The notes beneath the pieces were generated by a model. It worked only from the letters and a program-made list of their open reading frames with translations. It made no database searches and was not told the origin of the DNA. From an uncultured Bacteroidota bacterium (GTDB taxonomy: Bacteria; Bacteroidota; Bacteroidia; 2-12-FULL-35-15): a DNA stretch of 64,000 bases. This document shows, in pieces, positions 1 to 17,279 of this stretch. Position 1 is the stretch's first letter. Every line of letters starts with the position of its first letter. A program made the position numbers and the translations under genes. The stretch spans positions 4,405 through 68,404 of the forward strand of contig CAIYIS010000025.1 of the NCBI GenBank assembly GCA_903926385.1. Reading direction: 5' to 3'.

Positions 1-3000
1 CCGACTCCGTTGTTGCAACATGGTAAAACAACAAATGTTATTGTTTGAGGGCAAGGTCCATTTATAATATTAACTGTTACTGTGGCACCAACGGCTATTG
101 CGATATTATTCCATGTAATAATAAATCCGCCACTAATATTTGTAACAACTCCTGCTGGATTACCACTTCCATCATTTAATATTGGAATAATTTGATAGGT
201 ATATGCTCCGTCATATCCATTGATAGTAAAATTTCCATTACATGTAGTAGGGTTGGATAAAGCTTCGGGAATATATTGTTCTGGAGTTACAGTAATATCC
301 ATAGGTGTTGAAATTGCACATTGTCCAACAGTCGGTGTAAAGGTATAAACGGTTGTCCCTGCAACAGCCGTGTTTACAGCCGGAGCCCAAGTTCCGGTTA
401 TAGCGGGAAGATTGGTAGACGATAATGGTAATACCGGAGCAGTCCCAAATTGACAGACATTCGATATAGCTGCAAACGTAGGTGTTATCTGCGGATTAAC
501 GGTGATGCTTAATGTGGCGGTGGTGGCGCACTCACCGGCTGTCGGGGTGAATGTATACACGGTAGTGCCAGCCGTGGCGGTGCTCACTGCCGGTGCCCAG
601 GTGCCGGTGATAGTCGGTAAATTAGTGGATGTTAACGGTAACACAGGCGCTGCACTGTTTTGGCAAACATTGGCAATTGCATTAAATGTTGGTGTTATCT
701 GAGGATCAATAGTTACAACGAAGTCAGATGGAGTACCTAGACAAAAAGTCGGCCCGGGACCTGTAGGCGTAATCACATAGGTAACCGAGCCTGAGGTATT
801 TCCGGGATTAGTAAGCGTTTCTGAAATATTTCCCGTTCCGGCAGCACTGAATCCTGTTATAGTTCCCGTAGTCAGAGAGGCTGTCCATGCATATATAGTT
901 CCGGCAACGTTGGATGTTGGAACCAATGATGCTAAAGTTCCGGAACAAATGGTTTGGATTAATATCGGATTGGTAATAGTCGGCACCGGGTCAACAGTTA
1001 TAGTTACCTGACTAACCGATGGCGGACATGGGAGATGCGTTATTGTCCATTGAAATACATTCGCTCCAGTTCCCAACCCGGTAATGCCTGTTGTTTCAAG
1101 ATTCGGGTCTGTAATAGTACCTGTTCCACTGATTAATGTCCATAGGCCTGTCTCGACATTAGTTATTGGAGCGTTTCCGGCCATTGTTGCCGTTGTTCCA
1201 CATACCGATTGATTTGATCCTGCTTCAGCCACTGTTGAAGGATACAATGAGCCAGCTACGGGTGTAAAATCAAATTCCATTAACGTATTTTCTGCTAAAC
1301 ATTCTGCAGCATTACCTGGGCAAAAATACGATAGGGATACCGGCAGCTGCAGAGTATAATCTTCTGGAGGGAATAGACACGAAGATGCTGTCACGAAGTT
1401 ACTTACTAATCTAAAACAGCGGCAGGAGGGTCCTGCTAGTGAATTTATATCAAATGTTCCTGAACCAGCAGGTGTTTGTGGAATATGAGCAATACCGGGA
1501 ATCGGGGTTCCGGCATTAGGCCCGTCACAATATAACACTTCTAACTCAGGGTAGTTCAAAAGTGCATTTATGAATGGAGAAAACAACACAGCATTCGGAA
1601 ATACACTAGTACCATTAGGATATACATATGAATTGCAGATTTTAAATGCCGATGAGTGAAAGATACCCATAGAATTAACTGTTGTTAACCCTGGATAAGC
1701 AAAAGTTATTGTAGGACTATAATGAGTTACGGGATTACTTGGTAAAATTCCACCTCCAGAATTAACAACTGTTACAGGGCCGGTTGTTGAAATACCATAA
1801 TTAGCCGGATTCTGAAAATTTTCTGTATAACCTCCTGGGGCTGTTACTACAAAGTTAGTTGGTGAAGGAACCGTATTTCCGCAATCAACACTGAAAGTTA
1901 AAGTAATTAATTCTTGCGGATGAAGATGACTAACTGGGTCATATTTCCCGTCAATTAATGGCCATTTTGGTAATGACCCTAATAATCCTGACGAACTTAG
2001 TATAAACCCTCCAGGAATAAAAGTTGGAGTAATCGGGATTCCTAATGTTACTAAATGTGATTCCCCGTCAGCAAAATGATTATCACTTGCTCCGAGAGCA
2101 TAAGGAGGGCTGGGTAAAGTTGTTGTAAGTGTATGATAGTTATCCTGTGTATATTGATATTTTGCACTGCTAAGCGTATAACCCGTTGGTACCTGGACTT
2201 CTATATCACCGTTAATATTGGCATAAGGTCTGAATTCATAAGGAAAATCTGCTTGATTTAATTCATTTATGCCAAGCGCGTCCACTACTCTAAATTTTAT
2301 ATCCATCTGATATTCGCAAAAGGAAGCCAATCCGTTTTCAACTTCTAATGTTACTGTTGGTTGAAGTACCGTTAAATTTGCTCCCCAGTCATCACAGGAA
2401 TGGTTTTCTAAAAGTGAGCCCGATAAAACACCCATATAATCAGCCCGAAAATCAATTAAATGATGTGCTTTGGGTAGATGAGAGAAAAATTCATTCGTAC
2501 CGCTAATGCCCGGGCCTGTTCGTAAGGCAAAATGAATATCGGCTATAAAATAAAATCCTCCCGCTGTGGTAAGACCTTGCAAAATACTTACAGGTATATT
2601 AATATTTTGTCCTTCCTGCAAAGAAGATAAAATACCAGATGTTAAAGTCAGTTGTCCAGGCGCTGTAGTTAGAGTTGTAAGTAGTGTCCCATTAGTCAAA
2701 TCATAAACTTTAACTGTACTTCCAGATAACATCTCAAAAATATTTGCTGACTGACTTTCTAATGTTGTCGTAAGATCATTGTATCTGAATTGTAAATAAA
2801 TGCTTTGAAAATTGTTTAAAACCCCGTTAAACGAACCTTCTATTTTTGCTTCGGTTTCATCCCCTGGATACACCCTGTCAAGCAGAGGTAAAGAAATCAA
2901 CGGTGGTATACCAGCAGAAACGCCAACGAGAGAGGCTCCTCCTATTGTAGCACTATTATAACTATAGAGTGAAGTAGGGTCAGCCGGATCAGGGCAATAA

Positions 3001-5300
3001 TACCCGAAGGTGTTGCGCAAAAATGTATAAGGCTGTTCTTGAGGCAAGGATGCCGGTATATTACTTCCTCGAGTCATATTGTAAGTTTGAAAGTAAGTAC
3101 CTGTTGCACAAGTGCTGCATGAATGATGAACAATGTGTGTCGATTTCTTTGCTATTACATCTAAACAGCTTTCATTGCAACAAATGTATTGTAATTCACA
3201 TGTAAAATTATCTGTAAATGCAGCACTTGGGCTTGATCCAACAGGTGGTGTCACAACTACCGGACAATCGCAGGTATATACAAGTGGTATAAAAACACAA
3301 TTAAGTGAAGACCCTAGGGGTAAAAGCGAAAAATCAATATCTATATAACCTGAGGTATATGCATATGGGACGTTGATTCCATCGCCAATGCATACACCTG
3401 GAGTTTCTGTCACAACCGCTTTAGGTTTATGTCCTATTCCAATCCCCCCATCGTATAAGGTAGTTTGAATTCCTGCTATTGCCGTTAATTCCATTTCAGC
3501 GGTATGATTTCCACTGTTTGCAGAAAATAATTGTGAACTTGAATAATCAAGATGATACCCAGCAGGTAGATTTATATGTATTCTGTCTTTACCATTTAAA
3601 CAATCAAACACATAATTTGTTCCAATCCATTCTTGACTAAATGAAGGACAAAAGCTGAAAACAAATCCTTGACCAGCTACCGCATCCGAAGGTCCTGTAA
3701 GGGCACTCGGACCTTCGGTATCCTTATAACCATAAAAAGCGTCCGGATAGGGAACCGTTGGAGTATAAATATTCGCAATATCAGCAACATGATAATTGTA
3801 AACGGTTGTGCCCGATGCATGATAAATCAAATTTTCACATTGATTCTGATAATAAGTATACGTGCTGATTAATAAGCTTTTCCCAATACCTCCTGAATTA
3901 TCTCGATACGTTTGTGTAAATGGATATGGGCAACTGGTGTTATAATTAAAATCAAAAGAGATATAAAAACTTTCTCCTTCATACAAATCATCCATTTTCC
4001 CGTCTCCGTCTGCATCGCACAGGCTGTGAAGTGCAGATGAACCAGGCAAATAGTTATACGCTGTTACAACCCATCCACTAAAATCCAAAATATAATAGGT
4101 ATAAGCATTTGTACCGGTTCCAAAATTAAATGGCCCTGATATTACTCCAGTTCCTGATAATGACGTTGTTGTGCCTGCTAATGTATTATGAACTGTAAAA
4201 CTGCCCGCATTTATTTGCCCTAATTCATTAAATGCCGATATATAAATCTTTAGGTTGGTTGCTTTTGCCCATCCCGGGTTGTCTGCTCCTGAAAAAGGGC
4301 CCCCGCTGTTCGTATATTTGAAGGTAAGGTTAGTGGCTCCGCTACTGCTGCAGACTTGATAAGAACCATTGTTTAACGATTGTGACGCATCTACAGTTAA
4401 ATTTGGCTGTCCAGTAACATTAAAATTTATGTTGGATGGAAATGAAAGTCCTGTTTGGCATACTGAAACCGTTGAGCAATCTGTCCCCCATGAATATATT
4501 ACGTCCCCTCCATGTCCATTGACAGAAGATGAACTGCATTTACCCCTTATACTTACATGAATAAAAACTGTGCTTAATTGAGGTACTGTAATATTTAGGA
4601 TGCTTGTTCCGCTTAATGCATTGCACGTAACTCCGGCAAATCCTGAGGAAACACTATAATCTATTGGAAGCAGGGCTAATGTGTTATTTTGGTAATAACC
4701 AAGGAAATCAACGTATGCAGCTTGTCCTGATAAATCAAGCACAGCACTTGTAATGTCTTCATTACCTGTATTTTCCAGCTTAATTACCCAATCCATTATC
4801 GTCCCAGTACTAATAAAACACGCATTGGCATTTGCTAAACTTGCAACAAGAAATGGTGCATCCACTTTCAGCGATGTAGGAGAGTTAGTATTATTTGAGA
4901 GGTTATAATTCATTATAGTATAGCCTGTCACTCCTCCATAGCAAGGTGAACTTATAGGTATATCTATAATAATACCCGTTGCAGGCGCATTTATTGAACA
5001 TGTAAATAGGGACTGTGCAGTTCCTGCTCCTGAAGCATATGTTATTACTGTAGGGCTGTAATTGCCATTATAAACAATACCGCAAGGGAACTGCAGAGCT
5101 ATATTGTTAATCGTATTTGTTGAGATGGTTAAATTATATCTTAAAAAATAATTGGTACAGGGCAACAAATCACCTATATGTTGTGTACCAGCAATTCCAA
5201 AATTGTCAGTATAAACAGTTTCAGAATTGATAGTAATTTGTGCTTTCCCATTCTGCAAAGCTAAAATTGCTATTGCTAAAAAAATAATAGTTTTTTTCAT
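1..5300 (-). CDS. Giant secreted adhesin-like protein with tandem Ig-like/beta-sandwich repeats (N-terminal ~1766 aa; C-terminus lies beyond window start)
   Basis: ATG at 5298-5300 (minus) gives MKKTIIFLAIAILALQNGKAQ, a Sec signal peptide. The minus-strand reading frame stays open to position 1. Thr/Gly/Ser/Asn-rich composition typical of Bacteroidota surface/gliding or T9SS cargo proteins. ~75-aa units (..ITGTWAPAV..GTTVYTFTPT.G.CA..) are repeated near the window start. The ORF track shows only short plus-strand shadow ORFs here, consistent with one long minus-strand ORF running off the edge. Confidence 0.7.
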   Translation of the reverse strand, partial: MKKTIIFLAIAILALQNGKAQITINSETVYTDNFGIAGTQHIGDLLPCTNYFLRYNLTISTNTINNIALQFPCGIVYNGNYSPTVITYASGAGTAQSLFTCSINAPATGIIIDIPISSPCYGGVTGYTIMNYNLSNNTNSPTSLKVDAPFLVASLANANACFISTGTIMDWVIKLENTGNEDITSAVLDLSGQAAYVDFLGYYQNNTLALLPIDYSVSSGFAGVTCNALSGTSILNITVPQLSTVFIHVSIRGKCSSSSVNGHGGDVIYSWGTDCSTVSVCQTGLSFPSNINFNVTGQPNLTVDASQSLNNGSYQVCSSSGATNLTFKYTNSGGPFSGADNPGWAKATNLKIYISAFNELGQINAGSFTVHNTLAGTTTSLSGTGVISGPFNFGTGTNAYTYYILDFSGWVVTAYNYLPGSSALHSLCDADGDGKMDDLYEGESFYISFDFNYNTSCPYPFTQTYRDNSGGIGKSLLISTYTYYQNQCENLIYHASGTTVYNYHVADIANIYTPTVPYPDAFYGYKDTEGPSALTGPSDAVAGQGFVFSFCPSFSQEWIGTNYVFDCLNGKDRIHINLPAGYHLDYSSSQLFSANSGNHTAEMELTAIAGIQTTLYDGGIGIGHKPKAVVTETPGVCIGDGINVPYAYTSGYIDIDFSLLPLGSSLNCVFIPLVYTCDCPVVVTPPVGSSPSAAFTDNFTCELQYICCNESCLDVIAKKSTHIVHHSCSTCATGTYFQTYNMTRGSNIPASLPQEQPYTFLRNTFGYYCPDPADPTSLYSYNSATIGGASLVGVSAGIPPLISLPLLDRVYPGDETEAKIEGSFNGVLNNFQSIYLQFRYNDLTTTLESQSANIFEMLSGSTVKVYDLTNGTLLTTLTTAPGQLTLTSGILSSLQEGQNINIPVSILQGLTTAGGFYFIADIHFALRTGPGISGTNEFFSHLPKAHHLIDFRADYMGVLSGSLLENHSCDDWGANLTVLQPTVTLEVENGLASFCEYQMDIKFRVVDALGINELNQADFPYEFRPYANINGDIEVQVPTGYTLSSAKYQYTQDNYHTLTTTLPSPPYALGASDNHFADGESHLVTLGIPITPTFIPGGFILSSSGLLGSLPKWPLIDGKYDPVSHLHPQELITLTFSVDCGNTVPSPTNFVVTAPGGYTENFQNPANYGISTTGPVTVVNSGGGILPSNPVTHYSPTITFAYPGLTTVNSMGIFHSSAFKICNSYVYPNGTSVFPNAVLFSPFINALLNYPELEVLYCDGPNAGTPIPGIAHIPQTPAGSGTFDINSLAGPSCRCFRLVSNFVTASSCLFPPEDYTLQLPVSLSYFCPGNAAECLAENTLMEFDFTPVAGSLYPSTVAEAGSNQSVCGTTATMAGNAPITNVETGLWTLISGTGTITDPNLETTGITGLGTGANVFQWTITHLPCPPSVSQVTITVDPVPTITNPILIQTICSGTLASLVPTSNVAGTIYAWTASLTTGTITGFSAAGTGNISETLTNPGNTSGSVTYVITPTGPGPTFCLGTPSDFVVTIDPQITPTFNAIANVCQNSAAPVLPLTSTNLPTITGTWAPAVSTATAGTTVYTFTPTAGECATTATLSITVNPQITPTFAAISNVCQFGTAPVLPLSSTNLPAITGTWAPAVNTAVAGTTVYTFTPTVGQCAISTPMDITVTPEQYIPEALSNPTTCNGNFTINGYDGAYTYQIIPILNDGSGNPAGVVTNISGGFIITWNNIAIAVGATVTVNIINGPCPQTITFVVLPCCNNGV
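270..715 (-). repeat. In-frame tandem ~225-bp domain repeats inside the adhesin gene; one copy is recoded with GC-rich codons
   Basis: Translated copies: ITPTFAAISNVCQFGTAPVLPLSSTNLPAITGTWAPAVNTAVAGTTVYTFTPTVGQCA and ITPTFNAIANVCQNSAAPVLPLTSTNLPTITGTWAPAVSTATAGTTVYTFTPTAGECA. The copy at ~500-715 uses gcc/gtg/ggc/ccg codons and is locally far GC-richer than the surrounding sequence. Confidence 0.6.
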
Positions 5301-5645
5301 AAGTTTATTTTTATTTGGTGTTGACTTATTTTAAATACATTTGTTTTCAATGTAAATTTTCGGAATAAATTTTTATTAGAAATAATTATTGAATTAAAAG
5401 CACTTATTAAGAATTTGAAATTTTACTAAATAAAAATTTAAGAAAAAGAAATTTATTTTTTGGTTGGAATTATTTGTTTGAAGGGTATTCAGAGAGATGT
5501 AATTCACAATTGAAGTGCGAGTTTTTTTAAATTTTATGATTGTTTTAATTATAAAAATCATTAATTATTTTTGAATTACAGCGTAAAAATATTAATAATA
5601 TTGAGATTTACAATTTATTTTAACAATTAAATTGCTTCCAAAAAT

Positions 5646-5673
5646 AAAAACCCGACATAATATCGGGTTTTTT
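5646..5673. terminator. Bidirectional rho-independent terminator hairpin (aaaaaCCCGAcataatatCGGGttttt)
   Basis: 5-bp GC stem flanked by an A-run and a T-run, immediately downstream of the stop of the minus-strand gene 5694..6626. Confidence 0.5.
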
Positions 5674-5693
5674 GTTGATGTTTAAGCATGAAA

Positions 5694-6626
5694 TTAAAAA
5701 GGTAAATCATCACTTCCATGCGGTATTTCCTCCAATTTGGATTCTGATTGTGTTGGGGTTTCATTTGATTGGTAACTTATATTCAGAATATAATCAGTAG
5801 CTTTTTGCGCAAGTGTAGAAGCATACACAATGAAACGCCTGTCGTTCTTGATTTTCTCCAACCATCCTTTCATGTCAGCTTCATTAGTTGAAAAGTGTTC
5901 TTTACCGAAACCGGCAAATGATTTTAAATAACAAGCACCAATTTCAGCCATGAATTCCTCTGTTGAATAAGGTTCTGCTCCGAATGCTTTTTGTTGCATT
6001 ACTTCTTTTCTGTTTACCCTGCTTTGGTGTCCGGTGCTGTGGACAAGCTCTACAAAGAGTTTACTGAAATAGCTTTCTTTGCTATCAAAACTTTCTTCTT
6101 TAGGAATGTTTACAAAATCAAGTAAAGGATTGTAATACGACTTGTTTTCTTTGTGTTTGATTTTTGGTAGGTTCTGCATGTGCATAATGATATCCTCACA
6201 AGCCTTTAATGGATTGTTTTGTAAATCTATCATTGGAATTTGAGTTTCAGGTATTCCATCGCATTGTGCAATGTTATATACACTGTTGTAACGAAGAAAT
6301 GGAACATTTGCTATTTGATCAGTCCCCTCGTCTTTTACTTCTAACCATTTCCAGAAAACAGTCATGTTACCTTTTTCACCTTCTTTGATTGTCGCCCCTA
6401 TTTCCTTTATCTGGTGAGAAGTCAGGAAATAGTTTTGTTCGTAACCAAGAGGATTGAGAAGCCATACATTAATTCCCCTGTAAGGTCTTCCTGTGATTAA
6501 GTTTTTAGGAAGCCCGGCATCTCCCCAAGGTTGTTGCCAAGGGACTATTCCCTTCTCAATTTGTTTTGTGATTCGGTTGTTTACCATTGCGTACACATCC
6601 GTTGTTGATGATTTTTTTTCATTCAT
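5694..6626 (-). CDS. ArdC-like antirestriction/ssDNA-binding protein (DUF1738 N-domain + zincin-like HExxH domain), copy 1
   Basis: Motifs VPWQQPWGDAGLPKNLITGRPYRGINVWLL (ArdC N-terminal domain) and HELVHSTGHQSRVNRKE (HExxH metallopeptidase-like). Paralogous to 12555..13598. Confidence 0.7.
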   Translation of the reverse strand: MNEKKSSTTDVYAMVNNRITKQIEKGIVPWQQPWGDAGLPKNLITGRPYRGINVWLLNPLGYEQNYFLTSHQIKEIGATIKEGEKGNMTVFWKWLEVKDEGTDQIANVPFLRYNSVYNIAQCDGIPETQIPMIDLQNNPLKACEDIIMHMQNLPKIKHKENKSYYNPLLDFVNIPKEESFDSKESYFSKLFVELVHSTGHQSRVNRKEVMQQKAFGAEPYSTEEFMAEIGACYLKSFAGFGKEHFSTNEADMKGWLEKIKNDRRFIVYASTLAQKATDYILNISYQSNETPTQSESKLEEIPHGSDDLPF

Positions 6627-6806
6627 TGCTTTATAGTATTAAATTGTGTGGAACTGTTTCCGAGATGTAGTATAGCTGGGGAAGAAATATATGCAATAGA
6701 CGAAAATTGCTATTTGTAGCAAGTGGTGGGGAAAAGAAATATCAATGAAATTTGTTGAATTTATAGCACTTTTAGCGAAATAATATTCACTAATAAATCA
6801 AAACAA

Positions 6807-7754
6807 ATGAACACTATTCAAAACAAGATTAAAGAATTTCTAAATCATTGTAAGTATGAAAAAAATCTAAGTAGTAAAACGATAAAGGCATATACAATAG
6901 ATTTGATGCAGTTTACAAAGTTTTTAATTGAGAAAAAATACTCTCTTGAAATATTGAATATTTCTAAAGTCGAAATTCGTGGATTCTTAGAATCAATTTC
7001 AGTTATGAAACCAAAATCAATAAAGAGGAAAATTGCAACAATTAAGGCCATGTTTAACTTCTTGGAGTATGAGGATTCAATTCTAATTAATCCATTTCGA
7101 AAAATGAGAATTAAGATTCAGGAAGAAAAAAAGTTGCCAAGAGTAATGGAATTAAAGGAAGTAAACTCTATGATGAAATTTGTGTATCGAGAAAATGGTT
7201 TATGCAAAGACTTTGATTCCTATAGCTATTCCGAAACATTAAGGAATACGGTTGTTATAGAGTTATTGTTTGCAACTGGTGCACGAGTTTCAGAAATTGC
7301 AAATCTCAGACTGGAAAATATAAATGTTTCAATTGGTGCTATAACCATTAAGGGTAAAGGAAACAAGGAGAGGATCATTGAAGTATGCAACAAAGAAACG
7401 CTTCAATTATTAAAAAGGTATCAGGGTCATTTCATTGATAAAATAACCGATTCTGGAGGCTTCTTTCTGATTAATCGTTTTGGGAACAAGCTTTCAGACC
7501 AGTCTATCCGTGGGATTGTAAAGAATGTATCAAAAAGTGTAGGAATTACAAAGCTAATTACACCGCATGTATTCAGGCATTCTCTGGCTACTCTCCTTTT
7601 AGAAAATGATGTGGATATAAAATATATTCAATCAATTTTAGGTCATAGTTCTATTATGACCACTCAAATTTATACTCATGTAAACCGCAAGAAACAAAGG
7701 CAAATACTCACTTTGAAACATCCTAGAAAGAATCTTATTATGATAGCTGATTAG
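6807..7754 (+). CDS. Tyrosine site-specific recombinase / integrase (XerD-like)
   Basis: C-terminal catalytic region: ...ARVSEIANLRLENI..., HVFRHSLATLLLENDVDIKYIQSILGHSSIMTTQIYTHV (R..H..R..Y box II signature). N-terminal SAM-like core-binding domain. Confidence 0.85.
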   Translation: MNTIQNKIKEFLNHCKYEKNLSSKTIKAYTIDLMQFTKFLIEKKYSLEILNISKVEIRGFLESISVMKPKSIKRKIATIKAMFNFLEYEDSILINPFRKMRIKIQEEKKLPRVMELKEVNSMMKFVYRENGLCKDFDSYSYSETLRNTVVIELLFATGARVSEIANLRLENINVSIGAITIKGKGNKERIIEVCNKETLQLLKRYQGHFIDKITDSGGFFLINRFGNKLSDQSIRGIVKNVSKSVGITKLITPHVFRHSLATLLLENDVDIKYIQSILGHSSIMTTQIYTHVNRKKQRQILTLKHPRKNLIMIAD

Positions 7755-7785
7755 TTTTCCTGAATGAAGGATAACTAAATATTAT

Positions 7786-8571
7786 ATGTTGTTTGCAATA
7801 GCAAAATTGATCCGTATTGAGAAGAGTATATCCAATTCACTTTCAATTTTTTTTCCGTTAATATACATTACTCGAAACATTTCTTTTAGTTTAAATTATT
7901 CTATTCCCATATTTTTTATGTTTGCGGCTGCTTTTGTCATAAATGATATAAATGATTTAGAAAAAGATAAAATCAATCATAGTAATAGAGCATTGCCTAA
8001 GAATGATATTTCTATTAATATGGCAATCATTTTATATTATTTCTTTCTTGCTGGTGCTTTATTATCAATTAAACTGACCGTTCCTTTTAATTATGTATTT
8101 ATTTACTTGCTTTATATTGTTCTGATTACGAATTATGACTATTTGAATATGGGATACCCATACTTGAAAAACCTATATGTTGTGCTGGTTTTTTCGATTC
8201 ACTTTGCAATACTGTATTTAATAATCCCAATAAATATATTTATATTGATAGGGTTGGTGATAAATATATTATGTAAGGAGATTTACATGGATATCAGAGA
8301 TATTAAAGGAGACGGAAAAACTTTTGCTAAAGTTATGGGTATAAAAAACACTGGTAAAGTAATTCTTTGTTTGCAATTTTTATTGTTGGCTTCTACATTT
8401 ACTGTACTCTATCAAGAATTTTCAATTATTCATTGTTTAGCTTTTATTATTGTTGTCATTACCTTTATTTCTAATGCTATAATTTGGTATCGATATAATG
8501 TACTTAATCTAAAATCCAACATAAATATTATTGTCTTTCAAAATTTTATTATTTATGGACTAATCTTGTGA
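7786..8571 (+). CDS. UbiA-family polyprenyltransferase (membrane)
   Basis: First Asp-rich motif FVINDINDLEKDKINHSNRALPKNDIS (NDxxDxxxD...RxLP) and second motif YMDIRDIKGDGKTFAKVMG (DxxDxxGDxxxGxKT). Eight or more hydrophobic helices. Very AT-rich codon usage. Confidence 0.65.
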   Translation: MLFAIAKLIRIEKSISNSLSIFFPLIYITRNISFSLNYSIPIFFMFAAAFVINDINDLEKDKINHSNRALPKNDISINMAIILYYFFLAGALLSIKLTVPFNYVFIYLLYIVLITNYDYLNMGYPYLKNLYVVLVFSIHFAILYLIIPINIFILIGLVINILCKEIYMDIRDIKGDGKTFAKVMGIKNTGKVILCLQFLLLASTFTVLYQEFSIIHCLAFIIVVITFISNAIIWYRYNVLNLKSNINIIVFQNFIIYGLIL

Positions 8572-9609
8572 TTATTTTAATGCTAAATCAGCAAGCATAA
8601 TAATAATCGTTATTATAAGGGGTAAATCATTAATAGCTAATCGTAGTTGATACTTCAATTCATCCCTTGATATTTTATCTTTTTCACTTAGATATTTGAT
8701 TTTCTCAAACTCGCTTATATTTTCTTTAGAGCTTAATTCTTTATTTAAAATTTCAATTTTAATATCTATTGATTTAGTATATAATTTTCTTAAAAGAGTT
8801 TTAGGATAATAATTAAAAACTATTAATACTGGCATTGCAATTATGGCAAGGTAAAACATAAATATTTTTACAGCTTGACCAAGTTCGGAACTATATTTAA
8901 ATGGACCATGATAATAACTATTAACTTGAAACCATACTGCAAGAACAGTAAATGTTGTTACTACATTTATGTAGGTTGAAATTCCTTCCAATTTATTATC
9001 ACTAAACAAATCTTCATTAAATTCAATATCCTCAATCGATTGCAACATTTGAGCAACATAGAAAATTTTTCTCCCAATATATACTGCACAACCATACATT
9101 GCACACCCATATATTATCATAGTGCTTTCCAAAAACTTATTTTCATAGGGAAACCTGGCAAAATAAAATAAAAGAAAAGAAAGTATAATGTGTATTGTAA
9201 CGATTCTCATAGAACTTTTGATTGAGAAATACGTTGTCTTGTGACGATGAAATATTTTATTCTCAGCCAACTTGGTTTCTCCGAAAACCCTAGATAATAA
9301 ATTTGGGATGTATTCTTGAGTTTTATAAATTTGATAGGTAAGCCCAAATAACAATCCTCCTGTTATAAAGCAATTAAAGCCAATAAAAAAGTCGTGTAGA
9401 TACTGATAAAACGAGTTTCTTAAAAAAATGTATGAAATTAATGAAATAATAAAACCATAAAGGAAGCTTATAAAAAAGCCAAGATAAACGGAGTTCATAA
9501 TAAAAAAAATATTTCTAGATTTGCTATCTTGTTTAGGGTCATTTAGCAACACATTATATTTCATGTATGACGTTAATTCCTTAAAGAGAGTTTGAGCAAA
9601 GTTTTTCAT
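8572..9609 (-). CDS. Polytopic membrane protein of unknown function with charged C-terminal coiled-coil tail
   Basis: 345-aa ORF with ~8 predicted TM segments, no recognisable catalytic motif. Its stop codon abuts the stop of the convergent UbiA-like gene (8571/8572). Confidence 0.4.
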   Translation of the reverse strand: MKNFAQTLFKELTSYMKYNVLLNDPKQDSKSRNIFFIMNSVYLGFFISFLYGFIISLISYIFLRNSFYQYLHDFFIGFNCFITGGLLFGLTYQIYKTQEYIPNLLSRVFGETKLAENKIFHRHKTTYFSIKSSMRIVTIHIILSFLLFYFARFPYENKFLESTMIIYGCAMYGCAVYIGRKIFYVAQMLQSIEDIEFNEDLFSDNKLEGISTYINVVTTFTVLAVWFQVNSYYHGPFKYSSELGQAVKIFMFYLAIIAMPVLIVFNYYPKTLLRKLYTKSIDIKIEILNKELSSKENISEFEKIKYLSEKDKISRDELKYQLRLAINDLPLIITIIIMLADLALK

Positions 9610-9793
9610 ATTGATAATATTTAGTTATCCTTTATTAACAAAAATCTAAAAAAATACGATTACGGCATAAATGTAAGGAAAATATAAATATCCTAAAAAT
9701 TCAATAAACGAACATAATGTATTTTGATGATATTTTATTTGCCATAATAGATTTCTTGCATTATAAATCTACTACAAGTATAATATAAATTAT

Positions 9794-10399
9794 ATGGTGA
9801 TTGATAAAAATGAATTCTTTAATAATTTTAAAAGAGCTAAATCACGATATAAAGAACTTCAAGATGTATCCATTACTTTACGTTTCGGTAAAAGTCCTTT
9901 TTTTACAATGCAAGCATTACTAGAACCAATATCACTTTTTCAAAAGAAAAAAAAATACTTTGTATTAATAAATTTGAAAAGAACAGATTTTCTTTCTCAG
10001 TTATCAGAGGATAATATTCTTGGTTGGTTTGGGCACGAATTAGCCCATATAGTAGAATATGAAAAATTGACCAATTTAAATCTTTTTGTTTTTGCAGTAA
10101 AATACCTGTTTGATTCAAAATTCAGATACTTCGTTGAACGAAGTACTAATGCATTTGCCTTCAATAATGGTTTCGCGCTTGAATTATTTTTGGTTTGGAA
10201 GAAATTTATCTCAATGGATATTAAAGATATAAATTACAAAAAGTATATACTTGAAAATTATTGTCCACATTGGGCTGACATCAAAGAAACCGCACAAAAT
10301 TTCGGCATAAGTAAACAAATTTATGAGTCAATGAAACAGACCAAGGTAGTTAATTTTAAGACTACTGCAAAGATAAAGAACAAAATTAAGTCAAAATAA
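9794..10399 (+). CDS. HExxH-motif protein, possibly ImmA/IrrE-family metallopeptidase-like
   Basis: WFGHELAHIVEYEKL (HExxH plus downstream E). It sits in a mobile element that also encodes an XRE-type HTH protein. The family assignment is an inference from the motif only. Confidence 0.35.
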   Translation: MVIDKNEFFNNFKRAKSRYKELQDVSITLRFGKSPFFTMQALLEPISLFQKKKKYFVLINLKRTDFLSQLSEDNILGWFGHELAHIVEYEKLTNLNLFVFAVKYLFDSKFRYFVERSTNAFAFNNGFALELFLVWKKFISMDIKDINYKKYILENYCPHWADIKETAQNFGISKQIYESMKQTKVVNFKTTAKIKNKIKSK

Positions 10400-10400
10400 A

Positions 10401-10434
10401 CCCCTCTTCGTATTTTAAACGATAGAGGGGTTTT
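10401..10434 (+). terminator. Rho-independent terminator (CCCCTCTtcgtattttaaacgatAGAGGGGtttt)
   Basis: 7-bp GC-rich stem plus T-tract directly after the stop of 9794..10399. Confidence 0.6.
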
Positions 10435-10456
10435 GAAATAAGGTTGAAAAATATGC

Positions 10457-10581
10457 TTCTACGTCATCGTAACGTAATGAAATCACGATTATTCAATCCT
10501 TGCTTACTATTTGAATCCCATATTCTGAAAAATATAATTCTACGTCATCGTAACGTAATGAAATCACGATTATTCAATCCT
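10457..10581. repeat. Two perfect 44-bp direct repeats (TTCTACGTCATCGTAACGTAATGAAATCACGATTATTCAATCCT) separated by a 37-bp spacer
   Basis: Copies at 10457-10500 and 10538-10581 are identical by eye. Each contains the dyad TACGT-N7-ACGTA. Confidence 0.8.
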
Positions 10582-10848
10582 AGGTATTCAATTAAATTAT
10601 ACATACTTTGAATCATTTTGCAATGTATACGCTACATCTCAACAATTTAGACAACCAAAAACACATATTTAACAAATGAATCAATTAATAATGTTGGTGT
10701 TATACCCTTGCGAAAAATCAGTAATAGCATCAGGAAGTCTAAATTATTAACATTTTTTAATGAAATAATGTTAATAATATACCAAAATTGATTTATAAAA
10801 ATCGGGAAATAACATATCTTTGTCGAAGAAAACTATCCAAATAACTGA

Positions 10849-11304
10849 ATGGACGAAAATTTAATTAAATCTTTTAAATGGGTTGGGTTACTTTTTTCAT
10901 TTGCTTTTATTACTGAAAGCCTTTGTATTTATATTAAGTACGGACTAGTGAATACCTATCCATTACCAACTGGAATTAATAGTTGGTACGAAATGGCTGT
11001 GGATATGGAAAGGTTAATGATATACTCGATAATAATCATGAGTGCCATTTTAACTGATGTGATTTTAAATCCGAACCGATTTATGACATGGAAGATATGG
11101 AGTACTTGGACAGGGTTAATATTATTAGCCTCACTTATCACCTTTTATATTCTACACAAAGTATTTGAACAAAGCTGTTTACTTAAATTTAAGCAATCTG
11201 CTCCTCGAGCTGAGGAAATTTTACATTACATCGAATCGTCTTTGCCTCTTGGGGCTTTTTTAATTTCCGTTGTGTGGAAGTATTCTATTAACGTCACAGA
11301 ATAA
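10849..11304 (+). CDS. Small membrane protein, unknown function
   Basis: 151-aa ORF with 4 hydrophobic helices. No motif recognised. Confidence 0.4.
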   Translation: MDENLIKSFKWVGLLFSFAFITESLCIYIKYGLVNTYPLPTGINSWYEMAVDMERLMIYSIIIMSAILTDVILNPNRFMTWKIWSTWTGLILLASLITFYILHKVFEQSCLLKFKQSAPRAEEILHYIESSLPLGAFLISVVWKYSINVTE

Positions 11305-11474
11305 AAAGTGTTTCATTTAATTTTAAATAGCGCTTTGTTTTTGGTAATTACTTATTTCATTTATGAATTTTTTCATGATATCAAATCCATTAAAGAAATA
11401 AAACGAAAGAAATTTAAAAGAAGGTCAACAAAGACAACTAATACGAAACTTAAAGAAAAAATATACCAGAATAA

Positions 11475-12314
11475 ATGAATTTATTATTTTTTGTTATTTT
11501 CTTTTTAGGATTCTGCACATTCTTTTTTTTAGTTTTCATTACTGACATAAAAAAATTAAGTGGATTCCGTAAAGCAGCCGCTCAAGAAAACGAATTATTT
11601 AATTTGAAAGGTGGCAATTTTAGTTATTCACATCGAATTGACTATAACGAGAAGGATGAAGGGATATTACAAACCAACATTGATCAGTACTTTAAAATCA
11701 TGAAAAACGCTATAAAAAAAGCGGAAAGTGAAATTATTATTGTTGATTATACAAAACATGGAAAACATTTAGAGAAAATTGATTCAGATATTCATTTGTT
11801 TTATAATATCTCTCGGCATTATGAAGATTATTATTGTGAATTAGAGAAAATCATCACCAATAAAGAGGTTGAATACAACAGAATAATTTGTCTTCCTCCA
11901 TCGCAAAAGAACCTTAAAGATTTAAGTAAAATTTTATATAATGCTGTAAGATATGTATTTTATGGCACTTATAAACACCTTAAAAAACTTAAAAATAATC
12001 CCAATTTTAATTTATATATCTTACCCGGCCCAATTCGGACGAATAGTTTAATAATCATTGATAAGAAAATAGTACTATTTGAGTATGATTCCTACGGCCC
12101 TAATTTAGAATGTCGACCTGATTTACTTTTTATTCATTTTGACGATAATTTAGCAACTAATGAATATAATAAGGTTAAAGAGAGGATACATAATATTTCA
12201 AAAATTAATGTCGATGATTTATTAGCGGTGTATCTTGAAAAGATAATAAATCCAAAAACTTCGGTTGACGCATTCGGCAAAAAGAATATTGCAAAAACAG
12301 ATTTGACTAAGTAA
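11475..12314 (+). CDS. Hypothetical protein with N-terminal TM anchor
   Basis: 279-aa ORF. N-terminal hydrophobic helix (LLFFVIFFLGFCTFFFLVFI) followed by a soluble domain. No recognised family. Confidence 0.4.
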   Translation: MNLLFFVIFFLGFCTFFFLVFITDIKKLSGFRKAAAQENELFNLKGGNFSYSHRIDYNEKDEGILQTNIDQYFKIMKNAIKKAESEIIIVDYTKHGKHLEKIDSDIHLFYNISRHYEDYYCELEKIITNKEVEYNRIICLPPSQKNLKDLSKILYNAVRYVFYGTYKHLKKLKNNPNFNLYILPGPIRTNSLIIIDKKIVLFEYDSYGPNLECRPDLLFIHFDDNLATNEYNKVKERIHNISKINVDDLLAVYLEKIINPKTSVDAFGKKNIAKTDLTK

Positions 12315-12552
12315 CTTGTTTTAGCTTAAATTCCCTATAGCTTTCCAAATACAACTCATTCATCAAGGTTGCATAGAGAGCACTTAACTTTATCAGATTC
12401 TCTACACTCGGCATTGCCAGCCCCTTTTCCCATTTCGAAATTCTACTCGCAGATTTTAATCCGAGTAGTTTAGCAACTTCATTTTGTTTGTATCCCATTA
12501 ACAGCCTGTGCTTCCTTAAACTATTTTTATAACGTTTAGTTTTTTTCTTCAT
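12307..12552 (-). CDS. XRE-family (Cro/C1-type) helix-turn-helix transcriptional regulator
   Basis: LLMGYKQNEVAKLLGLKSASRISKWEKGLAMPSVENLIKLSALY is a canonical HTH_3 pattern. Immediately upstream of and co-oriented with ArdC-like copy 2. Confidence 0.7.
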   Translation of the reverse strand: MKKKTKRYKNSLRKHRLLMGYKQNEVAKLLGLKSASRISKWEKGLAMPSVENLIKLSALYATLMNELYLESYREFKLKQVT

Positions 12553-12554
12553 TG

Positions 12555-13598
12555 CTATCGTTCCATTGCTACAGTCTGTTCCTCTCCTCTCTCCCGTGTT
12601 TTCTGTAAATCGTTTTCTCGGCTATTTGTTTTGTCTTTTTTGTTTGTGTCCTTTGTTGATGGTTCTAATTCTTTTTCTTCTGGTTCAATTTCTTTTTCTT
12701 TCTCCTGAATATTCAAAATATAATCAGTCGCCTTTTGTGCCTGTGAACTGGCATAGACAATAAACTTCTTATCCTTTTTCAGTTTAGTAAGCCAGTTTTG
12801 AATATAGGCAGCGTTGTTCTCCAATTTTTCAATCGGAATGCCTGCAGATGATTTCAGATAAGAAGCACCCATTTCTGCGGTTAGTTCTTCAATAGCATAC
12901 TTTTCAGAACCAAACGCATTAGCATCGGTTATTTCTTTTCTGTTTAATCTGCTTTGGTGTCCACTACTGTGGACTAATTCATGGAAGAGTGAACCGTAAT
13001 AACTTTCACTATCCTTGAAAGTTTCCATTTTAGGCATATTCACAAAGTCTTTTTCTTTGTGATAAAAAGCTTGTTGTTCTTCATGCTTAATTTCAGGACG
13101 ATTCGGCATTTCCTTGATTATCTTTTCACATTCTTGAATCGGATCATTTTGTTTTTCTGCTATAGGTGGAAGTTTTGATTCTGGTATTCCTGTACATTGG
13201 GATATGTTGAATACTTTGTAGTATCTAAGGAGTGGTTTCTTTTCAATTTTCTTTGTTTCGGGATTTTCCTTCTCTATCCATTTCCAGAAAACAATGATAT
13301 TTCCCTTCTCATCTTTTTTAATACTTCCTCCTAGTTCTTTTACCTGTTTAAAGGTCAGAAATTCGTTCTGAGAGTATTTTAGTGAGGATAACAGCCAAAC
13401 ATTAACTCCTCTGTATTTATTGCGTGTAATCAAGTTTTTTGGCTGTCCTGCATCTGCCCAAGGTTGTTGCCAAGGTACAACGCCTTTTTCAAGATGTTCA
13501 ATGATTCGGTCAGTCACCATTTGATATACATCTGGTGCTGTCTTTGGTTTTTCATTTGTGTCTTTAGTTTGATTTTGGTTTGTATTAGTTGTGGTCAT
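12555..13598 (-). CDS. ArdC-like antirestriction/ssDNA-binding protein (DUF1738 + HExxH), copy 2, with extra N- and C-terminal charged extensions
   Basis: VPWQQPWADAGQPKNLITRNKYRGVNVWLL and HELVHSSGHQSRLNRKE. Collinear with copy 1 at roughly 50% identity by eye. Confidence 0.7.
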   Translation of the reverse strand: MTTTNTNQNQTKDTNEKPKTAPDVYQMVTDRIIEHLEKGVVPWQQPWADAGQPKNLITRNKYRGVNVWLLSSLKYSQNEFLTFKQVKELGGSIKKDEKGNIIVFWKWIEKENPETKKIEKKPLLRYYKVFNISQCTGIPESKLPPIAEKQNDPIQECEKIIKEMPNRPEIKHEEQQAFYHKEKDFVNMPKMETFKDSESYYGSLFHELVHSSGHQSRLNRKEITDANAFGSEKYAIEELTAEMGASYLKSSAGIPIEKLENNAAYIQNWLTKLKKDKKFIVYASSQAQKATDYILNIQEKEKEIEPEEKELEPSTKDTNKKDKTNSRENDLQKTRERGEEQTVAMER

Positions 13599-13645
13599 AG
13601 TTTTATATTTTAAATAGGTTTATTTATTAATAATTAAATTGTCTT

Positions 13646-14300
13646 TTATCGGTCAATATCTCTTTCTTGCTCTTCTGATTTGTCTGCCCGTAAGTCCTCT
13701 AATTCCTGTTGTCTTTCTTCGGCTTTGTTGTCGGTTGGTCCGATTTCATTGGATTTTTCTGTTTCATTTTCAATATCTTTTTCTGTTTCGATATGTTTTA
13801 ACTCATAGTAATAATGAGGCGAATGACTTTTTGTTACTGGCTCCAACTCTTTTGTTTCTTTTTAGTGGCATAGTATGGAGATGGTTTTCCTTTGGTTTGG
13901 TCTGAAAATACATTTAGACTAATTTTCTCCTTTTTCTTCTTGATTTTAACCGGCAGTTTTTTTAGTGTTTTTTCAATTCCTACAATAATTTTTGTTGCTA
14001 CATGGTGATATAGGTCAAATGGTGTCCTTATCTCCTTTCGGTTTTCTTCTTTCCCTTTCATGTTTATCTTGTTTTTGAAATGACTCTACTTTTTGTTTTT
14101 GACCTTATTTCATTTAGGGATTTTTCCCGTCTTTCTAATTCAGAAGGGCTGACCATACATTCACAGTATCCTGCATCTTCTGTTTGAATTTCGGAGTAAT
14201 AAATGCTTTCGATGTTTTCTGATTCTATTTCCTGATCGTTTTGGTAACTATTGTCTTTATTGAGTTCAGTGTCCTTGGTTTTATTTTCTTCGATTTCCAT
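13646..14300 (-). other. Three consecutive small highly charged ORFs (66, 75, 78 aa). Possibly small mobilization-associated proteins or a frameshifted remnant
   Basis: ORFs 13646..13846, 13834..14061 and 14064..14300 are head-to-tail on the minus strand between ArdC-like 2 and the relaxase. Low-complexity E/K-rich sequences with no motif. Confidence 0.25.
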
Positions 14301-14329
14301 TTTTAATTTATTTAGTTCTGATTTTTTAT

Positions 14330-15175
14330 TTATCTGCTTCTTTGGATATTTCTATTATTCATTTTTTCTCTTACTCTGTTTAATTCATTCGCTCTTGTTT
14401 TTGTCTTATTCAAATCTTGTATTCTTTCTTCTGTATATCCGAGACGATTGAAACGAAATTTGTGTTTACCGAATATGATACCTGTTGTTTTACCGCTTCT
14501 GTTGTATGTTTCAATTCCGCATTCTTTTAGTTTGTTGTAAAAATCTTCTATTGAGTTCGATGCTTTGTAACATGTTTTCAGCATTCCTATAACCTGTTCC
14601 TTTTCTGATTGCCTTCCTGTTCTTAATTTAAATTGATATTCTTTATCACTCGTTACTGCTTTTTCTTTCTTCCAATGTTCTACTACTGATTTTGATAATT
14701 CAGGATAATGTTTCTGCTGGTATTCTTGTATGTCTTTTTTGAGTTTTCTGAATTCACCTTTCGACATTCGCATGGCTTTGCCTGTGTGATATTCCAGTCC
14801 TGATGCACAAATATGAATGTGGTAATGGTTTTTATCAAAATGAGGAGCGATGACATATATTCCTTTTGGGTTTCTCCTTTGAATGTATTCCCTTGCCATT
14901 GCTTCCATCTTTTCAATGGATATATGTTTTGCATCTTCTTTGTGCCAGGAAAGTATTTCATGGGTAAGGATGACACTGTCTTTTCTTTTGTGTTTCCGGT
15001 ATGTTTCATTCTTTTTAAATTGTTTCTCCCAGCTTTCTATATTTCTTCCTTTCAGATTATGCGTTAGCATAAAGGTGTTTCCTTCTTTGTCAACTAAACG
15101 GTCTTTATCATTGGTTATGTATTCAAGTAGTTTTTTGTAGTTTGGTCTTTTATATGTTTTGACTTTGACTATCAT
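14330..15175 (-). CDS. Mobilization relaxase (MOB_P-type / Bacteroides MobB-like, PF03432)
   Basis: Histidine triad HFDKNHYHIHICAS (HxDxxxxHxH). N-terminal region MIVKVKTYKRPNYKKLLEYI is typical of the relaxase family start. Confidence 0.75.
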   Translation of the reverse strand: MIVKVKTYKRPNYKKLLEYITNDKDRLVDKEGNTFMLTHNLKGRNIESWEKQFKKNETYRKHKRKDSVILTHEILSWHKEDAKHISIEKMEAMAREYIQRRNPKGIYVIAPHFDKNHYHIHICASGLEYHTGKAMRMSKGEFRKLKKDIQEYQQKHYPELSKSVVEHWKKEKAVTSDKEYQFKLRTGRQSEKEQVIGMLKTCYKASNSIEDFYNKLKECGIETYNRSGKTTGIIFGKHKFRFNRLGYTEERIQDLNKTKTRANELNRVREKMNNRNIQRSR

Positions 15176-17085: not shown

Positions 17086-17279
17086 TTGTATCGTGTATTA
17101 GTTGGTTTGGTAATAATGAACTGCAGGAATAGGTTGATTTGTTGTAAGGTAAGTTCTGCTAATCGCAGGACTCCCCATATACATATCACAATCAGTTTCA
17201 GGATAATTTTCAGGATGGTCCAAAGGATATTTTTCATTGTATTTTCTTTTTAAGGTTCTACTTCATTCTTTTTTGTTTT

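Follow-up and report, generated by a model that had tools for sequence, protein, structure and literature searches.

A giant surface-protein gene encodes two adjacent, predicted Ig-like repeats, one of which carries a short patch with a codon composition unlike that of its surroundings: 27 of its 37 codons end in G or C (GC3 0.73), with a total GC of 0.64 over 111 nt. The patch occupies codons 1564-1600 (ITGTWAPAVSTATAGTTVYTFTPTAGECATTATLSIT; minus strand, positions 501-611 of the 64,000-nt stretch of DNA that was analyzed, hereinafter the window), as delimited by a maximal-scoring-segment search, a resampling null and an empirical scan, with the edges being uncertain by about three codons per side. 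The observation is real but narrower than first described. According to the original prediction, one copy of the repeat is written almost entirely with G/C-ending codons: while the peak does exist, it is limited to these 37 codons, and the first 30 codons of the same copy show a GC3 of 0.30, no different from the 0.27 of the neighboring copy. The patch is probably a small recombination scar or a product of local GC-biased drift, the candidate causes being conversion from a GC-richer close homolog, GC-biased conversion among paralogs, or chance.

The giant gene and its tandem repeats

The gene is a single long open reading frame on the minus strand, which starts with an ATG at 5300 and runs past the left end of the window. 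The window thus holds its 5' 5.3 kb (1-5300; 1766 codons), as seen from the open frame, its translation, Pfam matches and a second assembly, L075, which contains the full-length gene (L075:4369-12426, 2685 aa) and is 100% identical to the window across the common 5300 nt. The translated protein begins with a signal-peptide-like N-terminus, MKKTIIFLAIAILALQNGKAQ, and contains PKD-like domains, among them a PKD_5 domain at aa 1449-1534 (699-956, minus strand; PF19406, E=9.3e-10, 38.7 bits against a cut-off of 25), directly upstream of the first repeat. Past the window edge come a region resembling a beta-helix and a C-terminal Por_Secre_tail domain; precomputed annotation places both PF19406 and PF18962 on the 2685-aa product. 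The product thus combines the signal peptide and the Por_Secre_tail/CTD that define T9SS cargo, and from its sequence is predicted to be a T9SS-secreted surface protein, with a putative adhesin function. Among 5.8 billion proteins no full-length ortholog was recovered: a protein profile search returned fragments only (at most 123 aa and at most 78% identical), and a short-query protein search, which was nearly blind as it missed the source protein itself, returned only six candidates. The gene adjoins two ArdC-like genes, a tyrosine recombinase, a relaxase and a T4 coupling protein, and a Mu-like transposase gene lies downstream in the same neighborhood. These mobile-element neighbors point to a setting prone to horizontal exchange.

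The two repeats lie in tandem: repA (aa 1534-1603; 492-701, minus strand), with an overall GC3 of 0.53, is followed in the protein by repB (aa 1604-1673; 282-491, minus strand), with a GC3 of 0.27. Both were delineated by codon-by-codon alignment and tblastn. They share 52 of 70 residues (74% at the protein level, 64% in DNA), in keeping with the 75% identity originally given, whereas the unit length proves to be 70 rather than about 75 aa. The AF2 model of the pair (mean pLDDT 95.3) consists of two small all-beta domains with three main strands each, and the patch covers all three of these strands in repA. In Foldseek searches against the PDB the model matches, with probability 1.0 and E-values of 2e-4 to 1e-2, tandem Rib domains, Ig-like domains of BbgIII and a chitinase, and fragments of GhpA. 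Thus, on the strength of the structural model, repA and repB appear to be tandem Ig-like all-beta domains, as initially suggested for this adjacent pair. At the sequence level, the only curated-model match near the repeats is that to the preceding PKD_5 domain: the 70-aa units have no Pfam match even at E<=1, no NCBIfam match, and nothing better than E=0.36 against PDB sequences. The family as a whole has thousands of members and reaches 32 tandem copies, against the two in this gene.

Extent and composition of the patch

The GC3 profile of the gene is not uniform: it peaks at 0.70-0.73, against 0.264-0.276 for the gene and 0.33 for the other genes of the window, and the anomaly in codon composition is thereby confirmed. 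Positions 401-600 form the highest-GC 200-nt bin of the 64 kb (0.54). The AT-to-GC changes specific to repA cluster at about 501-585, and the shifted stretch is about 85-111 nt in length.

In a per-gene resampling of synonymous codons, the observed segment score was reached in 1 of 5000 trials with the gene's own codon usage and in 17 of 5000 with that of the other window genes; the binomial tail of the patch lies between 2e-8 and 4e-6. An empirical scan of about 202,000 codons, drawn from low-GC3 ORFs of 74 related loci and the window, ranks the patch as the top GC3 segment, with a score of 17.5 versus 13.8 and 12.3 for the next two. By both the resampling and the scan its composition departs significantly from flanks and host, and its top rank among this many codons makes chance unlikely at the scale of a window. 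The empirical tail is, however, heavier than the independent-sampling null, such that a fluke would be less surprising if many windows were scanned.

Among the G/C-ending codons of the patch ACC predominates over ACG (8 versus 1), alongside GCC, GGC and GTG; the patch thus follows a real codon preference among such codons and not a raw mutation spectrum. This ranking is the same as the host's own, and therefore codon choice gives no pointer to a foreign genome. The codons used are themselves a minority in this organism, with fractions of their synonymous sets of 0.09-0.16 for ATC, 0.12-0.17 for GGC, 0.11 for AGC and 0.16-0.19 for CCG.

Homologous repeat units and potential donors

The homologous 37 codons in other units have a mean GC3 of 0.25 and a maximum of 0.57 (106 to about 134 units from 8-16 other loci). 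The lack of any patch-like GC3 among these approximately 134 units indicates that the patch is no family-wide constraint; likewise, a codon constraint on the core throughout the family was rejected, as across 16 loci the core exceeds the first half of the unit in GC3 by only 0.054, in part owing to an invariant TGG.

The nearest DNA relative of repA is not repB but an array of ten units in L086 (L086/L087), a further T9SS cargo gene. This array comes from the two samples that also yielded the giant gene, and is the sequence against which the patch is to be compared. repA is 86% identical to its units in amino acids and 0.76 in nucleotides, versus 74% and 0.64 for repB. A longest-common-substring scan recovered two exact runs on the minus strand: 32 nt at 676-707, shared with a repeat-unit start at L086:3697-3728, and, inside the patch, 20 nt at 586-605 (GGCACCTGGGCACCGGCAGT), shared with L086:3589-3608. 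A Logan contig that maps to window positions 7785-678 (L076) breaks at 678, i.e. at the end of the 32-nt run. These runs suggest that segments have been exchanged between the genes, and the 20-nt identity indicates that the 5' part of the patch is of an L086-type backbone and not foreign. Both runs flank more diverged stretches, and protein identity to relatives stays even over the length of the unit.

Measured against the L086 consensus, the synonymous third-position differences of repA are directional: 22 are S in repA and W in the consensus, versus 6 of the opposite kind (p=0.004). In the patch alone the counts are 14 versus 2, with one or two further differences within the same class; in the first half of repA they are 7 versus 3, and the bias does not differ significantly between the halves. 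Neither the unit-wide excess nor that in the patch is independent of the way in which the patch was selected. repB, taken as a control, displays no directional bias (9 versus 10). The patch agrees with the consensus at 16 of 33 third positions and has a single same-class difference from it. The best nucleotide identity to it, 0.81, is found in L086 unit 665, whose GC3 is only 0.43; the L086 units are 86-91% identical to each other with a core GC3 of 0.32-0.43. The patch peptide is identical at 35 of 37 positions to the closest unit of the L086 family. Counted codon by codon, 19 of the 26 G/C-ending codons of the patch recur at their own position in one or more of the ten L086 units, and 25 of the 26 do so somewhere among the sampled units; the repA-specific codons include GTG at k47, absent from all 139 sampled units, and ACC at k31/40/51/60. 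Overall, about 11 of the 27 G/C-ending codons represent a backbone shared with L086 units, with some 14-15 being extra.

No donor emerged: none of the sampled homologous units exceeds 0.57 in GC3 or 0.81 in DNA identity to the patch. Plasmid, phage and viral-contig searches returned nothing, GTDB representative genomes (a set not including the source genome) yielded distant relatives only, a JGI metagenome scan gave at least two distant matches among the matches listed, and nothing specific was found in the literature. Under a saturated-donor model the joint probability of the codon backbone shared by the patch is 0.003-0.005; the unsaturated backbone common to the patch and L086 thus argues against a distant high-GC donor; a better fit is a close relative, or a process that raised GC in situ. 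Accordingly, the original proposal of import or conversion from a higher-GC donor is retained in part: it accommodates the local anomaly and a repeat family that exchanges segments beside mobile genes, but no donor came to light and a distant one is disfavored.

Origin of the patch and comparison with known systems

The explanation we place first, tentatively and at well short of an even chance, is that the patch was written by gene conversion, in this case short-patch homologous recombination, from an unsampled, G/C-richer member of the same repeat sub-family. The corresponding array of some other organism that hosts the adjacent mobile island would be a candidate donor. repA might then be read as a mosaic whose 5' end and ITGTW region are of L086 type and whose 3' core is GC3-rich, and the patch would be a historical scar and not a device. 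As the patch peptide is typical of the family, no change in protein function is expected. Several observations sit uneasily with such a conversion. The donor would have to be closely related and yet much richer in GC3, an awkward pairing; the best identity of 0.81 and the empty searches of plasmids, phages and viral contigs offer nothing of the sort; and the ranking of G/C-ending codons, being host-like, is uninformative as to a foreign source. Moreover, given the weaker AT-to-GC bias in the first half of repA (7 versus 3), the patch may be less a clean import than the peak of a shift across the whole unit. If it is a conversion scar, it adds one more example of short-segment exchange among Bacteroidota T9SS Ig-like repeat modules; the stakes are small, as the predicted protein is unchanged and there is no evidence that the patch regulates anything.

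In-situ GC-biased gene conversion among paralogous units is a rival that we regard as somewhat less probable. In this scenario repA would repeatedly have formed heteroduplexes with the many related units of its genome, with W:S mismatches repaired toward G/C, and would thereby have gathered the G/C alleles present among its paralogs. It would account for the near-exclusive W-to-S direction of the differences from the closest backbone (22 versus 6 overall, 14 versus 2 in the patch), for exact 32- and 20-nt runs that record past exchange with the L086 array, and for an unsaturated shared backbone, which fits a local origin. The presence of 19 of 26 G/C-ending patch codons in at least one L086 unit is also in its favor, but with ten such units S alleles are available by chance and the overlap does not discriminate. 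In bacteria, such biased conversion is known only as a statistical signal and is generally considered weak. In the present case, the L086 array is clearly homogenized by conversion (86-91%) and yet has a core GC3 of only 0.32-0.43, repB is without bias, and the tie of L086 to the giant gene is one of co-occurrence in two samples. The stronger version of this idea, that the patch is a single-locus footprint of bacterial GC-biased conversion in which G/C alleles were ratcheted up via T9SS cargo paralogs, is doubtful. Were GC-biased conversion at work here, this would be a rare case in which each site could be compared with partner sequences that can be named, and hence a tractable single-locus example of a process debated in bacteria.

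It is also possible, if unlikely, that no special cause is needed: synonymous substitutions may have clustered here by chance to an extreme degree, and have drawn notice because many kilobases were scanned. The per-gene resampling P of 2e-4 to 3.4e-3 translates into about 0.002-0.03 per 64-kb window, and real genes have a GC3 tail several-fold heavier than the independent-sampling null, as attested by the other segments scoring 13.8 and 12.3. Furthermore, about 11 of the 27 G/C-ending codons belong to the inherited backbone, which leaves only about 14-15 as extra, and neither a function, a structure nor a donor can be attached to the patch. Set against this, no segment in about 202,000 codons is more extreme, none of the approximately 134 homologous units comes close, and the 14:2 direction of the changes opposes the composition of an AT-rich genome.

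Local selection on synonymous sites at the mRNA level is improbable, whether it acts on mRNA stability or, through a cluster of less-used or of optimal codons, on the pace of translation while the first Ig-like domain folds or is secreted. The coincidence of the patch with the three core beta-strands of the AF2 model and its use of codons that are in the minority here (ATC, GGC, AGC and CCG) are what such selection might produce; however, the fold is shared by repB, whose peptide is very similar, the other units (about 134) are unbiased, and the predicted RNA folding is no better than that of shuffled sequences (z = -0.15). The window contains no highly expressed genes, and therefore optimal codons could not be defined.

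Still less credible is the other cause originally put forward, selection against recombination between the adjacent repeats, or ectopically with the paralogous array. The longest exact run between repA and repB is indeed 5 nt within the patch as against 11 nt elsewhere. Nonetheless, the first halves of the two repeats, which are A/T-ending and unshifted, share only 67% identity, well under what any recombination threshold would demand, and are thus about as diverged as the GC-shifted halves (62%). Any synonymous change would serve the purpose, with no requirement for a one-way AT-to-GC shift; repA retains a 32-nt exact run with the L086 array; and in related arrays neighboring units coexist at 96-99% identity. 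We therefore set this claim aside.

Equally remote is an artefact or overlapping element (an assembly chimera, antisense ORF, embedded RNA or DGR mutagenesis), even though the data are metagenome assemblies and a 66-aa antisense ORF with a GTG start (502-702, plus strand, from the ORF list) spans repA. At least three assemblies, each from a different sample (L075, L078 and L079), carry the patch without a single DNA difference, and all assemblies compared are 100% identical to each other at the gene. An inversion elsewhere sets L075 apart from the window and marks it as an independent assembly and not a copy. The third positions of the antisense ORF coincide with the sense third positions, which makes it a by-product of high GC3 and not a gene; its counterpart in repB is closed by stops arising from T-ending sense codons. 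An embedded or structured RNA was rejected on the fold score, the sole Rfam match being irrelevant (E=0.15, elsewhere in the searched region) and tRNA genes being absent, and matches to promoter or terminator signals are no more numerous than in shuffles.

The configuration superficially recalls the variable/template pairs of DGRs, with two similar repeats of about 100-200 nt, one of them altered, in a surface-protein gene. In contrast to such pairs, both copies are coding and in tandem, and the mismatches are mostly synonymous and fall on all four bases (by repB base, T 31, A 22, G 13 and C 9). As they are not adenine-specific, there is no DGR pattern, and no reverse transcriptase was found among the 20 window proteins scanned.

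The favored reading, conversion from a G/C-richer member of the repeat sub-family, is best compared with the mosaics that gene conversion or short-patch recombination produces in bacterial surface-protein and repeat genes, which contain short in-frame segments with a history unlike that of their flanks, as proposed for the patch. Shared features are the repeated surface module, the exact runs in common with a paralogous array and the mobile-element-rich context. Unlike in those genes, the codon backbone of the patch is the local one, what sets it apart is a direction of change (AT to GC) and not general divergence, and no donor was found in searches. According to the proposal of bacterial GC-biased gene conversion, recombining regions are higher in GC3, a signal that is statistical and genome-wide. 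The directional W-to-S synonymous change, the exchange between paralogs and the AT-rich genome are in line with that process, whereas the restriction to one patch of about 100 nt in one repeat, and sister units that convert without being GC-enriched, are not.

Finally, at the level of the protein the closest parallels are the repeats of Bacteroidota T9SS cargo, such as SprB-like proteins, CHU_C 'gliding motility-associated C-terminal domain' proteins and GhpA of Aureispira. The present unit differs from these in being without a Pfam, NCBIfam or PDB sequence model and in occurring in two copies only. It resembles them in the accompanying signal peptide, PKD_5 domain and T9SS CTD, and in its 70-aa all-beta units, the model of which matches tandem Ig-like domains, including the GhpA fragments.

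The giant gene and its Ig-like repeats

A single open frame on the minus strand occupies the first 5.3 kb of the window, with its ATG at 5300, and runs off the left end. Its translation has a signal-peptide-like N-terminus, and the complete gene is present in an independent metagenome contig (L075), 100% identical to the window over the 5300 nt that both cover. The product of the complete gene has 2685 aa, with a PKD_5 domain and a T9SS C-terminal domain (Por_Secre_tail). The PKD_5 domain is followed by two adjoining 70-aa units, repA (aa 1534-1603; window 701-492, minus strand) and repB (aa 1604-1673; 491-282, minus strand). As originally predicted, these are adjacent repeats of high protein identity (52/70 residues, 74%); their nucleotides are 64% identical, the longest exact run in common being 11 nt. 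The units matched no Pfam, NCBIfam or PDB sequence model. An AlphaFold2 model of both, built from 61 homologs, comprises two small all-beta domains (pLDDT 95.3), and Foldseek matches it best to tandem Ig-like domains, namely those of Rib, BbgIII, chitinase and the Bacteroidota grappling-hook protein GhpA. Given this confident all-beta model and these matches, the description of the units as Ig-like repeats of a giant surface protein is borne out; the protein is presumably an adhesin.

Among 5.8 billion clustered proteins no full-length ortholog was found, the sole match being the identical protein from 8 contigs. An exhaustive HMMER scan of the repeat family gave 2836 cluster representatives (E<=1e-3), in which a protein can hold as many as 32 tandem copies; the consensus of the 70-aa unit is ..TPTF..I..VCQ...AP.LP..S.N.ITGTW.PA..T...GT..YTFTP..GQCA....L.I.V. 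Homologs of repA and repB (P0155-P0304) are inconsistently named, e.g. 'concanavalin A lectin', 'HYR domain' or 'gliding motility-associated C-terminal domain'. In four long-read metagenome contigs (L082, L083, L084, L085) giant repeat genes of this family are called as strings of many 70-470-aa ORFs, so that the profile protein search gave only fragments of <=123 aa; these fragmentary calls lie in near-identical (96-99%) tandem units, where frameshifts are apparently the cause.

A putative mobile island and an invertible segment

Mobile-element genes flank the giant gene across window ~5300-17100: two ArdC-like antirestriction/metallopeptidase genes (5694-6626 and 12555-13598, both minus), a tyrosine recombinase (6807-7754, plus), a MobA/VirD2-type relaxase (14330-15175, minus) and a T4 coupling protein (15640-17085, minus). 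Downstream of the giant gene, beyond the window, a further metagenome contig (L078:11106-14058) carries genes for a Mu-like transposase and a T9SS-tailed protein of 341 aa. Across 5.2-12.4 kb the GC content is only 0.18-0.30, and the G/C share of third codon positions (GC3) is 0.27 in the giant gene versus 0.33 in the housekeeping genes of the window. Possibly the giant gene is carried as cargo by an integrative element of the mobilisable or conjugative type. The 390 nt upstream of it (5301-5693) are extremely AT-rich (GC 0.14-0.21), and a terminator-like hairpin (AAAACCCGACATAATATCGGGTTTTTT, ~5648-5674) adjoins the stop codon of the neighbouring ArdC-like gene, whose transcription is directed away from the giant gene.

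Directly downstream of the tyrosine recombinase gene lies an invertible segment of ~1.9 kb (7755-9644), bounded by two inverted-repeat arms of 31 nt (7755-7785; 9614-9644). Their 19-nt core (AAGGATAACTAAATATTAT) is perfect and occurs at these two sites only in the window. In L075, window 7731-9649 (99.7% identical) lies in opposite orientation to the rest of the locus. This alternative gene order recurs in the contig 'cZKaopBK', and one break of the Logan contig L076 falls at the arm end, 7785. The two enclosed genes, encoding a UbiA-family prenyltransferase (7786-8571, plus) and a protein of 345 aa that matches nothing in Pfam (8572-9609, minus), face inward and start 0-4 nt inside the arms. 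Inversion would exchange which gene follows the recombinase, and the segment looks like a phase-variable gene-swapping switch.

A G/C-ending patch in repA

GC3 is 0.264 over the 1766 in-window codons of the giant gene, 0.276 over the full gene and 0.33 in the remaining genes of the window. The profile along the giant gene is, as predicted, non-uniform: maximal-scoring-segment analysis delimits a patch at codons 1564-1600 (window 611-501, minus strand), in which 27 of 37 codons are G/C-ending (GC3 0.73, against an amino-acid-based expectation of 0.28-0.36), while 30-300-codon blocks of the rest range from 0.17 to 0.35 throughout. Of all 200-nt bins in the 64 kb, that at window 401-600 has the highest GC content. 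The original prediction had one repeat copy (~500-715) G/C-ending almost in its entirety; this is real in the C-terminal 37 codons of repA only, its first 30 being ordinary (GC3 0.30, the same as in the first 30 of repB), and the neighbouring copy (repB, 0.27 overall) and the remainder of the gene are A/T-ending as it stated. In the AlphaFold2 model the patch spans the three main beta-strands of repA. Synonymous-codon resampling attains the patch score in 1/5000 draws with the gene's own usage and 17/5000 with that of other genes, and a simple binomial calculation gives a tail of 2e-8 to 4e-6. When ~202,000 codons from low-GC3 ORFs of the window and 74 related Bacteroidota loci were scanned empirically, the patch came out as the top segment (score 17.5; runners-up 13.8 and 12.3).

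Across homologous units (106 from 8 loci, later ~134 from 16 loci), the stretch corresponding to the patch has a mean GC3 of 0.25 and a maximum of 0.57, and the core exceeds the first half by only +0.054. Thus, the patch is specific to repA, and a family-wide codon constraint on the domain is rejected.

Three assemblies from different samples (L075, L078 and L079) match the window exactly throughout the giant gene, and L075 is independent, since it carries an inversion relative to the window elsewhere in the locus; an assembly artefact is ruled out by this identity. The mRNA folding of the patch segment is no better than that of shuffles (z = -0.15), searches of the region gave no relevant Rfam match and no tRNA, and promoter and terminator matches show no excess. 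A 66-aa antisense ORF (502-702, plus) is rejected as a real constraint because its third codon positions fall on sense third positions, making it an expected by-product of the G/C-ending sense codons. A DGR-type pattern is excluded, as mismatches between repA and repB hit all four bases. Hence, an artefact or overlapping element is a highly improbable source of the patch.

Closest relatives and the origin of the patch

P0162 is the closest relative at the protein level: its units share 86% identity with repA, rising to 95% in the patch. Its cluster includes a PKD/CHU_C T9SS cargo gene with ~ten units (1714 and 1574 aa in contigs L086 and L087), found in ERZ27313323 and ERZ27313325, the same two assemblies as the giant gene, whose genome it may share. 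At the sequence level the patch peptide, identical at 35/37 residues to the closest L086-family unit, is family-typical. The nucleotide identity of repA is 0.71-0.76 to the L086/L087 units versus 0.64 to its neighbour repB, and exact matches of 32 nt (window 707-676) and 20 nt (605-586, inside the patch) are common to repA and those units. The k=31 contig L076 breaks at 678, where the 32-nt match ends, which we read as a graph branch, the same repeat being also present in that run. L086 and L087 have 100% identical flanks (at least 3.7 kb per side) and arrays differing by two units (420 nt); this difference, at L086:3700-4446, is either true copy-number variation or assembler collapse of 86-91% identical units.

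The L086 units have a GC3 of 0.20-0.27 in the first 30 codons and already 0.32-0.43 in the core, and therefore ~11 G/C-ending patch codons (ATC, GGC, ACC, AGC, GCC and others, at fixed positions) belong to a shared backbone. Relative to the L086 consensus, synonymous third positions of the patch are the same in 17 cases, G/C for A/T in 14, A/T for G/C in 2 and otherwise different in 1 (P 0.004); the corresponding counts are 30, 22, 6 and 2 for the whole of repA (P 0.004), 13, 7, 3 and 1 for its first half (P 0.34) and 24, 9, 10 and 11 for the whole of repB (P 1), these bias tests not being independent of how the patch was noticed. Under a simulated donor with synonymous sites saturated relative to L086 and a GC3 of 0.73-0.85, ~10.5 third positions would be identical and ~3.5 would differ within the same class; 16 and 1 were observed, a joint outcome with a probability of 0.003-0.005, which speaks against a distant source for the predicted import from a higher-GC donor. 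Going by the third-position counts and this simulation, the patch appears to be L086-type sequence, and no piece of a distant high-GC gene; its silent sites would have changed almost only from A/T to G/C, with the strongest shift in window 501-585. The favoured G/C-ending codons (ACC, GCC, GGC, GTG, CCG) follow the host's own ranking, and hence codon choice identifies no foreign genome.

We tentatively rank first a short-patch gene conversion, in which an unsampled close homolog of the same repeat sub-family with G/C-richer codons would have donated the patch. Consistent with this, the GC3 anomaly is sharply local, segment exchange between genes is demonstrable in the repeat family, and the island offers its ArdC-like genes, recombinase, relaxase and coupling protein, with the transposase downstream; the main weakness is that the donor, which was not found among the sampled units, the metagenome matches listed or the plasmid, phage and viral sequences searched, would have to combine closeness with high GC3. 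GC-biased conversion among paralogs is more doubtful: the pure A/T-to-G/C pattern agrees with it and 19/26 G/C-ending patch codons occur among the ten L086 units, yet the sister units are also converting without enrichment. That the patch is a stochastic extreme is unlikely, though it was selected post hoc and the empirical tail is heavy, both of which count in favour. Translational or mRNA selection, unsupported by repB or the ~134 other units, is very unlikely. Selection against recombination between repeats, the other predicted origin, is as improbable as an artefact: the unshifted halves are equally diverged, the changes are directional, repA retains the 32-nt identity with a paralog, and adjacent units in related arrays are 96-99% identical.

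The patch is a real, minor compositional oddity without demonstrated function. That it records GC-biased gene conversion at a single bacterial locus is distinctly unlikely. If conversion from a close homolog is the correct reading, it would add one example to a known kind, mosaic or conversion patches within repeated surface-protein genes.
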